The position numbers and the translations under genes are program-made. The notes below the pieces were generated by a model. The model saw nothing but the letters and a program-made list of their open reading frames with translations. It ran no database searches and was not told the origin of the DNA. A stretch of DNA of 48,242 nucleotides. Origin: Candidatus Woesearchaeota archaeon. GTDB lineage: Archaea > Nanobdellota > Nanobdellia > Woesearchaeales > CG1-02-33-12. Shown piece by piece: positions 1 through 1,547 of this stretch (within the stretch, counting starts at the first letter, position 1; each line of letters starts with the position of its first letter). Location of the stretch: positions 1-48,242 of the forward strand of contig JAFCEA010000001.1 in the NCBI GenBank assembly GCA_017609385.1. The letters are read 5' to 3'.

Positions 1-1547
1 GCTATTAGGATTCGACTAAGCCATGCAAGTCATGGGGTCCTTCGGGACACCGGCAGACTGCTCAGTAACACGTCGATAATCTAACCTTAGGTTTGGGATA
101 ACCCTGGGAAACTGTGGCTAATACCAAATAAGGGAATTCTTCTGGAATGATGTTTCCCTTAAAAGTAATGCCTAAGGATGAGTTGGCGGCTGATTAGGTT
201 GTTGGTGGGGTAATGGCCCACCAAGCCGAAGATCAGTAGGGGTCTTGAGAGAGATAGCCTCGAGAAGGGCACTGAGATACTGGCCCTAGCCCTAAGGGGT
301 GCAGCAGGCGCGAAACCTTTACAATGCACGAAAGTGTGATAAGGGAATCCTAAGTGCCTTGCTTTTTGCAAGGCTTTTTTCAAGAGTAAAAATCTTGGAG
401 AATAAGTGGTGGGAAAGACTGGTGCCAGCAGCCGCGGTAATACCAGCGCCACAAGTGGTGATCATTTTTATTGGGCCTAAAGCGTTCGTAGCCGGTCTGA
501 TAAATCTTCTGTGAAATTGTCAAGCTTAACTTGACAGCGTGCAGAAGACACTATCAAACTTGGAACCGGGAGGAGTCAGAGGTATTCTTTGGGGAGCGGT
601 AAAATGCTATAATCCTAAGAAGACTAACTGTGGCGAAGGCGTCTGACTAGAACGGATTCGACGGTGATTGGACGAAAGTCAGGGGAGCAATCCGGATTAG
701 ATACGAGAAATCATGTCTGATTTCTGGAGTTAGCTCGTAAATTGTTCTATGAAATCTACTTACGAATTAACAAAAGAAATTGCAAATGATGGTTTCTTGC
801 TAACTACCCGAGTAGTCCTGACTGTAAACTCTGCGAGCTAGGTGTTGTATATTCTTCGGGAATATACAGTGTCGAAGTGAAGACAATAAGCTCGCCGCCT
901 GGGAAGTACGGTCGCAAGGCTGAAACTTAAAGGAATTGGCGGGGGAGCACTACAAGGGGTGCGGCGTGCGGTTTAATTGAACTCAACGCCGGAAATCTTA
1001 CCAAGGGCGACGGCAGGATGAAAGTCAGGCCAAAGACCTTGCTTAACAAGCCGAGAGGAGGTGCATGGCCGTCGTCAGCTCGTGCTGTGAAGTGTCCTGC
1101 TAAGTCAGGCAACGAGCGAGACCTGTACCTATAATTGCTAACAACTCTTTCAGAGGATTGAGCACATTATAGGGACTGCTGTGGAAACACAGAGGAAGGT
1201 GCAGGCTACGGTAGGTCTGTATGCCCCGAATCCCTTGGGCTACACGCGCGCAACAATGGTAGGAACAATGGGATACAACTCCGAAAGGAGAAGTTAATCC
1301 TCTAAATCCTATCTTAGTCCAGATTGAGGGCTGTAACTTGCCCTCATGACGATGGAATCCCTAGTAATCGGACATCAACATTGTCCGGTGAATATGTCCC
1401 TGCTCCTTGCACACACCGCCCGTCAAACCACTCGAGCAGGGTTTAGGTGAGACTTAATATATTTGATTAAGCCGAACCTAAGCTCAGTGAGATGGGTTAA
1501 GTCGTCACAAGGTAGCCGTAGGGGAACCTGCGGCTGGATCACCTCCT
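1..1547 (+). rRNA. rrs: 16S (SSU) rRNA, 5' end cut by the window edge
   Basis: Universal SSU blocks read directly: GTGCCAGCAGCCGCGGTAATACC 422-444, GGATTAGATAC 694-704, TGCACACACCGCCCGTCA ~1408-1425, 3' end GGATCACCTCCT 1536-1547. GC is much higher than in the flanking DNA. ORFs called here are spurious. Confidence 0.95.
705..806 (+). other. ~102-nt insertion (intron or expansion segment) in the conserved GGATTAGATAC/CCnnGTAGTCC block of the 16S
   Basis: GGATTAGATAC ends at 704 and its universal continuation CCGAGTAGTCCTG resumes at ~807. The intervening AT-rich sequence has no counterpart in standard SSU rRNA. Local helices are visible (AGAAAT/ATTTCT 706-725; AGTTAGC 727-733 pairs with GCTAACT 799-805). 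Confidence 0.65.

Follow-up and report, generated by a model that had tools for sequence, protein, structure and literature searches.

The ribosomal RNA (rRNA) operon at the start of contig JAFCEA010000001.1, from a Candidatus Woesearchaeota archaeon, contains the single 16S copy found in a 92.7% complete assembly, and that gene is interrupted by 103 nucleotides (nt) between the residues equivalent to Escherichia coli U793 and A794. Here, the window means the whole 48,242-nt stretch that was analyzed. We consider it highly probable that the interrupting segment, at 703-805, is an archaeal bulge-helix-bulge (BHB) intron in the sole 16S gene of a Woesearchaeales-type DPANN archaeon. In the predicted precursor, exon UUAG would pair with the intron's 3'-terminal CUAA, the CGG and CCG of native helix 24 would serve as the outer helix, the two intron ends would form an inner helix of 11 bp, and the bulges AU/A and CU/A (the slash marks the cut) would stay unpaired. 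EndA would then cut in both bulges, and RtcB would join the exons to give GGAUUAGAU-ACCCGAGUAGUCC, probably circularizing the intron as well. The gene is divided as follows.

1-1547, + strand: 16S rRNA gene (Rfam SSU_rRNA_archaea, 1387 bits, model positions 29-1478); its 5' end is cut by the window start
1-702, + strand: 16S exon 1, ending ...GGAUUAGAU at E. coli U793 (covariance-model alignment and BHB cleavage rule)
703-805, + strand: highly probable BHB intron, 103 nt, 32% GC, no open reading frame (ORF) (model insertion and BHB geometry)
806-1547, + strand: 16S exon 2, starting ACCCGAGUAGUCC at E. coli A794

An earlier, sequence-only reading of this DNA had described an insert that splits a conserved 16S block, with GGATTAGATAC at 694-704 and CCGAGTAGTCC at 808-818, and a covariance model of the small-subunit (SSU) rRNA agrees. 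The Infernal alignment to the archaeal SSU model runs through GGAUUAGAUA, 104 inserted nt against 1 model position, and CCGAGUA, so the extra sequence interrupts the conserved block itself rather than a variable region. The insert therefore stands, while its proposed length of about 102 nt is revised to 103. It is AT-rich, as had been noted (32% GC against 49% in the exons), and it has neither an ORF nor a homing endonuclease, the longest stop-free stretch being 34 codons; no terminal repeats were found at the insert. Because AC is repeated at both ends, removal of 703-805, 704-806, or 705-807 would give an identical mature sequence, and the first register was chosen by the BHB cleavage rule. 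Numbering is fixed by the RNase T1 fragments of the E. coli 790 loop, in which AUUAG ends at G791 and AUACCCUG ends at G799 (PMC4613259), so the break falls between U793 and A794 in the 790 loop of helix 24, a functionally important loop at the subunit interface (PMC4613259).

The junctions fold into two 3-nt bulges on opposite strands, with a 4-bp helix between them and a helix on each flank, and joining U702 to A806 yields GGAUUAGAUACCCGAGUAGUCC, the sequence present in intron-less relatives. This junction folding supports the earlier proposal of a BHB-type intron: the arrangement is a canonical helix-bulge-helix-bulge-helix, and cleavage at its bulges would restore the universal sequence. 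Its parts are these.

693-695, + strand: outer helix, 5' strand CGG, pairing with 808-810; native apical stem of helix 24, invariant in 100 junctions
697-700, + strand: central 4-bp helix, exon strand UUAG, pairing with 800-803; 4/4 bp in 10/10 unselected relatives
701-703, + strand: 5' bulge AU/A, with predicted cleavage after U702 by the known BHB rule
704-714, + strand: inner helix, 5' strand (segment X), pairing with 789-799 (11 bp) or alternatively with 718-725
789-799, + strand: inner helix, 3' strand (segment X''), by covariation in 31 homologues
800-803, + strand: central helix, intron strand CUAA, by junction folding and the unselected relatives
804-806, + strand: 3' bulge CU/A, with predicted cleavage after U805
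808-810, + strand: outer helix, 3' strand CCG, by junction folding; invariant in 100 junctions

Comparison with other genomes carries most of the weight of this assignment. Among 61 relatives examined, 29 yielded the relevant 16S segment, and 10 of these have an insert of 93-144 nt at exactly the same point; all 10 introns in this unselected set keep four of four central base pairs and 3-nt bulges. A scan for the 3'-junction signature, at one genome per species, returned at least 119 loci. In at least about 105 of the 119 listed, a 16S gene is interrupted at this site by 20-745 nt and shows a BHB motif; the remaining listed loci are chance matches without a 5' exon. The larger intron sets used below (100 junctions, 104 introns, 91 introns, and so on) come from among the matches listed, and related sequences within them are not independent, a kinship that tree-based contrasts address in part. 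Homologues maintain the BHB motif by compensatory change. Across 100 distinct junctions, the first 4 bp of the inner helix are 97% paired through 41 different helices, against 53% with shuffled partners (maximum, 59% in 2000 shuffles) and 22-46% in slid registers, and among the 31 homologues of the window's intron 94% of X:X'' positions are paired, and each of the 11 pairs shows changes on both sides. Folding into the BHB form costs a median of 2.7 kcal/mol across 104 introns at the site, compared with 15.3 kcal/mol for shuffled sequences.

The host also encodes both enzymes that BHB splicing would use. RtcB scores 525.6 bits on contig C16, and EndA is represented by its catalytic and N-terminal domains (PF01974, 45 bits; PF02778, 41.5 bits) on contig C62. 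This sole EndA gene found (G000 contig C62, 2160-2484; L031/L152) runs off the end of a 2.5-kb contig. The match to its N-terminal domain spans two TAA stops, possibly through the placement of the alignment. Downstream of the 16S gene, the operon continues with a spacer tRNA and then the 23S gene at 1855-4786 (Rfam), and the spacer tRNA is itself split.

1592-1651 and 1739-1752: exons of the spacer tRNA-Ala(UGC), with G3:U70 (BHB and cloverleaf of the joined exons)
1652-1738: tRNA-Ala intron, 87 nt, 64% GC, at T-loop position 59/60

Here the BHB is clean, with the T-stem as outer helix, a central helix at 1646-1649/1733-1736, and bulges AA/C and AG/U. Because the tRNA-Ala of the same operon is divided by a T-loop intron, BHB splicing at noncanonical positions must be active in this host. 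ARAGORN called no tRNA in the window despite the split tRNA-Ala, and Rfam matches its 5' part only. A module shared by the 16S and tRNA-Ala introns was considered and dropped, as the two have no similarity (local score, 12 against 11.8±1.8 for shuffled sequences).

The intron's distribution among close relatives is patchy. Over flanks of about 800 nt, the exons of G002 are 97.7% identical to those of the window, yet its 141-nt intron is nonhomologous, and G008 (97.6%) and G010 (94.7%) have no intron; comparing the window with G002 and G008 therefore gives three states within one genus, namely, the window's intron, an unrelated one, and none. The most similar intron, at 85.7% identity, sits in a 16S gene whose exons are just 82.2% identical to the window's. 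Of the 201 genomes in an unselected sample at phylum level, 125 gave the segment; 26 of these are clearly split and about 4 more probably so (22-25%). Carriers among the matches of the 3'-junction scan bear the labels Woesearchaeota, Nanoarchaeota/Nanoarchaeia, Pacearchaeota, Aenigmatarchaeota, Micrarchaeota, and Altiarchaeota. Two introns at 793/794 in Woesearchaeota metagenome-assembled genomes (MAGs), of 745 nt (L059, CAYFJW010000002.1) and 739 nt (L092, CAYPRJ010000005.1), encode LAGLIDADG_3 (Pfam) proteins of about 235 amino acids with two LAGLIDADG-type motifs, LHGDGN and GLFD(S/A)EG. These proteins are candidate homing endonucleases for the 793/794 site; 703-805, having no ORF, does not belong to the endonuclease-bearing kind. 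From these comparisons we infer repeated gain, loss, or replacement at the site, a turnover probably seeded by endonuclease-bearing versions.

A more tentative proposal concerns what the middle of the intron does. In introns of 80-150 nt, it is possible, although doubtful at present, that the apical loop of a central hairpin acts as an exon-binding guide that opens the irregular midsection of helix 24, that the resulting junction builds the endonuclease substrate and splints the exons, and that a competing fold provides an off or postsplicing state. The elements concerned are the following.

735-740, + strand: central hairpin stem A, 5' strand, pairing with 760-765 (89% paired, changes on both sides in 6/6 pairs)
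741-748, + strand: loop arm 1, AUUGUUCU, complementary to 5' exon 684-691 (GGAGCAAU); covaries with the host exon
756-760, + strand: loop arm 2, CUACU, complementary to 3' exon 811-815 (AGUAG)
684-692, + strand: 5'-exon target of arm 1, the 5' strand of the helix 24 midsection, E. coli about 775-783
811-816, + strand: 3'-exon target of arm 2, the 3' strand of the helix 24 midsection, E. coli 799-804

In the 31 homologues, the CUAC of the apical loop is nearly invariant and an N-U-N-G-Y pattern is conserved. Arm 1 tracks the sequence of its host exon, with the pairs GCAAA/UUUG, GCAAU/AUUG, GCGAA/UUCG, and GCGAU/AUCG, and 58 of 72 introns contain the complement of their own host; shuffled host labels give 24.8±3.5 and never more than 38 in 5000 shuffles. 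Locating arm 1 independently of the exon gave pairing at position 689 in 48 and at position 691 in 46 of 49 cases. A tree of the flanking exons implies at least 8 changes at 689 and at least 12 at 691, and independent contrasts are compensatory in 4/4 (689) and about 6/6 (691). Position 5 of the arm is C or U opposite G687, and this tolerance of G·U indicates pairing in RNA rather than copying of DNA. For arm 2, CUAC occurs mid-intron in 53 of 73 introns of 80-130 nt (7.3 when shuffled); its only variants, UUAC, CUGC, and CUAU, could each still pair with the invariant 3'-exon GUAG at 812-815, and the U opposite A814 is invariant (31/31). Of 91 introns between 60 and 210 nt long, 79 have both arms, among them the nonhomologous intron of the congener; the targets are typically at 687-692 and 811-816, and the arms lie 5-8 nt apart. 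The spacer between them (749-755 in the window) is likewise 5-8 nt in relatives and A-rich in most (AUGAAAU, AAUAAU, GAAAA), and could be a linker or a binding site.

By predicted energy, the 8-bp duplex of arm 1 in the window is worth -8.4 kcal/mol and that of arm 2 is worth -5.1 kcal/mol, compared with -4.9 kcal/mol for the native pairing between the two exon target strands. The arms directly abut stem A at one end and meet the BHB outer helix at the other. By pairing with the helix 24 strands directly below the outer helix, they would create a four-way junction without linker bases at the foot of the BHB, which may stack a regular helix on the 3-bp exon helix, splint the exons, or delay formation of helix 24. 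Both exons would in that case stay tied to the intron through cutting and joining.

The 5' part of the intron can also pair locally in a way that competes with the BHB, through two further elements.

718-725, + strand: segment X', forming a local 5' hairpin with X that excludes the BHB inner helix (87% paired, changes on both sides in 8/8 pairs)
728-734, + strand: internal exon-like element AGUUAGC, able to pair with the intron 3' end at 799-805 (GCUAACU), including nucleotides of the 3' bulge

An internal A-N-UUAG motif of this type occurs in 36 of 91 introns, against 14.9 in shuffled sequences, and its N complements the 3' bulge base in 33 of the 36, with all four pair types represented. The self-contained fold, consisting of the 5' hairpin and the pairing of AGUUAGC with the 3' end, and the BHB are mutually exclusive, and both covary. 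In the precursor the two lie within about 1-2 kcal/mol of each other, and for the circular intron the self-contained fold is the predicted optimum. It may be adopted either ahead of splicing or by the intron once excised and probably circularized. The lower half of a rod model (X'/X2; 729-733/767-771), 75% paired with many unpaired cells, found weak support and was not relied upon.

Several observations weigh against the intron assignment or the proposed role of its loop. The BHB conformer is not the thermodynamic optimum, lying 2.3 kcal/mol above it, and its outer helix has 3 bp only, with A696 facing C807 as a mismatch that slightly relaxes the adjacent 3' bulge. The set of about 105 genomes was selected by a pattern that fixes CUAA-N-U, and with it the central helix, and leaves the inner helix free. 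The cut EndA gene leaves its subunit architecture (α4, α'2, αβ, or ε2) unreadable, and a lineage-specific V5 tag had no exact match among the metagenome contigs scanned. As for the loop, the target of arm 2 is invariant, so that its pairing is supported by which variants are tolerated, not by true covariation, and the four-way junction is a pseudoknot whose geometry we infer. Introns of 20-60 nt at this site have neither arm, which means that the arms are not needed for BHB cleavage there, and we have dropped the idea that they are a requirement for it.

Other explanations have to account for the same junctions. If the 103 nt were kept in the mature 16S as a lineage-specific extension of the 790 loop, as the stable rod into which the insert folds could suggest, the extension would occupy a functional loop of the subunit interface that is conserved universally; rRNA expansion segments do not fit an invariant loop in which the sequence is present, absent, or replaced within one genus, as it is between the window, the 97.6%-identical congener without an insert, and the congener with an unrelated one. 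Nor would a retained segment have any reason to hold a precise BHB at its junctions by compensatory change. We judge retention extremely unlikely, and the sequence evidence favors a spliced intron. The sequence-only reading had left open which of these two applied; compensatory upkeep of the motif in more than 100 genomes, a host that encodes EndA and RtcB, and the absence of the insert from so close a congener support its intron reading. The same evidence for cleavage applies if EndA removes the insert and the exons are never religated, so that the 16S works as two fragments, like bacterial genes with intervening sequences, and the two arms could even hold such pieces together. However, RtcB is encoded, the T-loop intron of the tRNA-Ala in the same operon needs ligation, and a nick between U793 and A794 would fall in a critical loop, leaving a two-fragment 16S very unlikely.

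The complementarity between intron and exons could instead serve 2'-O-methylation if the intron carried a box C/D guide, given that CUGA (717-720) and AUGAUGG (786-792) resemble D and C boxes and that the intron has antisense arms. In the 31 homologues, however, both box-like motifs belong to helices that covary, and about half of the set lacks them; no D or D' box follows either arm, the spacing is unfit for a C/D RNA, and Rfam returns no small nucleolar RNA match even at E<=10. A box C/D guide RNA was rejected on these grounds, and we regard it as highly implausible. Group I introns do occur in DPANN rRNA genes (PMC6125680), but a self-splicing group I or group II intron finds no Rfam intron match at gathering or permissive thresholds (searches to E<=10 give chance, hairpin-like microRNA matches only), and 103 nt is too short for one. 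A transposon remnant is countered by the lack of an ORF and of terminal repeats, and an assembly artifact or pseudogene is countered by the finding of this site and motif in more than 100 species assembled independently and by a gene that is the only 16S copy and otherwise scores normally. This last group of explanations is scarcely credible.

Among known systems, the BHB intron assignment finds its closest counterpart in the 16S introns of Thermoproteales, Desulfurococcales, and Aigarchaeota, for which 13 loci are catalogued (Jay and Inskeep 2015, PMC4496867). Those introns too are protein-spliced BHB elements in conserved 16S segments that interrupt "universal" primers, with short noncoding and LAGLIDADG versions at one locus and a patchy distribution. 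They differ from the present case in that the host here is a mesophile-type DPANN archaeon (Woesearchaeales), that 793/794 falls outside the 13 loci (judged by the primers interrupted, locus 781 lies before 787 and locus 803 lies after about 798), and that neither an exon-binding loop nor an alternative fold is described there (PMC4496867). Within DPANN, the 16S genes of Micrarchaeota ARM-1/ARMAN-2 also contain an insertion, but at E. coli 1093, of 522 bp, and bearing an ORF, with its splicing left open; the same authors list 16S insertions only for Crenarchaeota, Aigarchaeota, and Micrarchaeota (Sakai et al. 2022, PMC8784108). DPANN 16S genes have been mentioned in passing as intron containing (PMC7906910), and BHB introns have been reported beside group I introns in DPANN rRNA operons (PMC6125680). 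The rRNA insertions of the candidate phyla radiation (CPR) resemble those described here in escaping amplicon surveys of small-genome organisms, but they are bacterial, mostly group I/II-like or homing endonuclease bearing, and lack BHB motifs (Tsurumaki et al. 2024, PMC11270868). A literature search, incomplete in coverage and weak as evidence, found no description of the 793/794 locus or of an exon-binding loop in a BHB intron. Apparently, then, the intron is of a known kind, its site lies outside the published catalogue, and its exon-binding feature has not been described.

In group I introns the internal guide (P1/P10), and in group II introns the pairing of exon-binding with intron-binding sites (EBS-IBS), brings an intron element onto the exons. 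In the euryarchaeal pre-tRNA-Trp, the intron contains a box C/D guide for pairing with the exons around it. This is likewise a BHB intron whose RNA pairs in cis with host exons, although the 16S intron has no supported C/D boxes. As in group I and II guides (PMC10020454), one intron element could here pair with both exons and follow the sequence of the host exon. Unlike those introns, splicing would be by proteins, with no ribozyme core, and the arms would pair away from the splice sites, 11-18 nt upstream and 6-10 nt downstream.

Some observations from the same genomes concern other sites or the labels of the assemblies. A second 16S insertion site in relatives lies in the 690 loop of helix 23, between GGUAAAA and UGCUAU (window position ~604/605), where L130 (JACQXV010000189.1) has 42 nt inserted and the window's gene is uninterrupted; G196, G207, G139, G163, G174, and G031 are listed for this site, and the matches of several genomes begin at query position 46. 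Woesearchaeales-type 16S genes also occur in many third-party annotation (TPA) MAGs labeled "uncultured Methanosarcinales archaeon" (L032, L037, L038, L043-L046, L054, and L072, with further cases in L082, L084, L094, L101, L137, and L150), and L082 is the same contig as the same-genus G002. Archaeal 16S genes with this intron are found in MAGs labeled as bacterial as well (L067, L099, and L142; Aminicenantes, Deferrimicrobium, and "bacterium"). The Methanosarcinales and bacterial labels look like mislabeling or misbinning.

The practical consequence lies in how these organisms are counted. The insert had been predicted to disrupt the sites of widely used amplicon primers, and 806R indeed has 0 mismatches to the spliced sequence but 4 to the gene, including both 3'-terminal bases, while 785F loses its last 7 bases on the intron-bearing gene. 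With about a quarter of sampled DPANN 16S genes split at the 806R/785F sites, DNA-based V4 and V4-V5 surveys will undercount or miss these lineages, which RNA-based surveys would not. The site itself spans 20-nt hairpins, structured introns of about 100 nt, and endonuclease carriers of about 740 nt, with turnover inside a single genus. If the exon-binding proposal is true, this would be the first protein-spliced intron with an exon-recognition element functionally comparable to the guide sequences of group I and II introns, and it could explain how introns without an endonuclease recognize this site as they spread between lineages. Pairing between intron and exons offers a testable idea of how a protein-spliced intron may mold the substrate it presents, or set when a critical loop of the ribosome matures.

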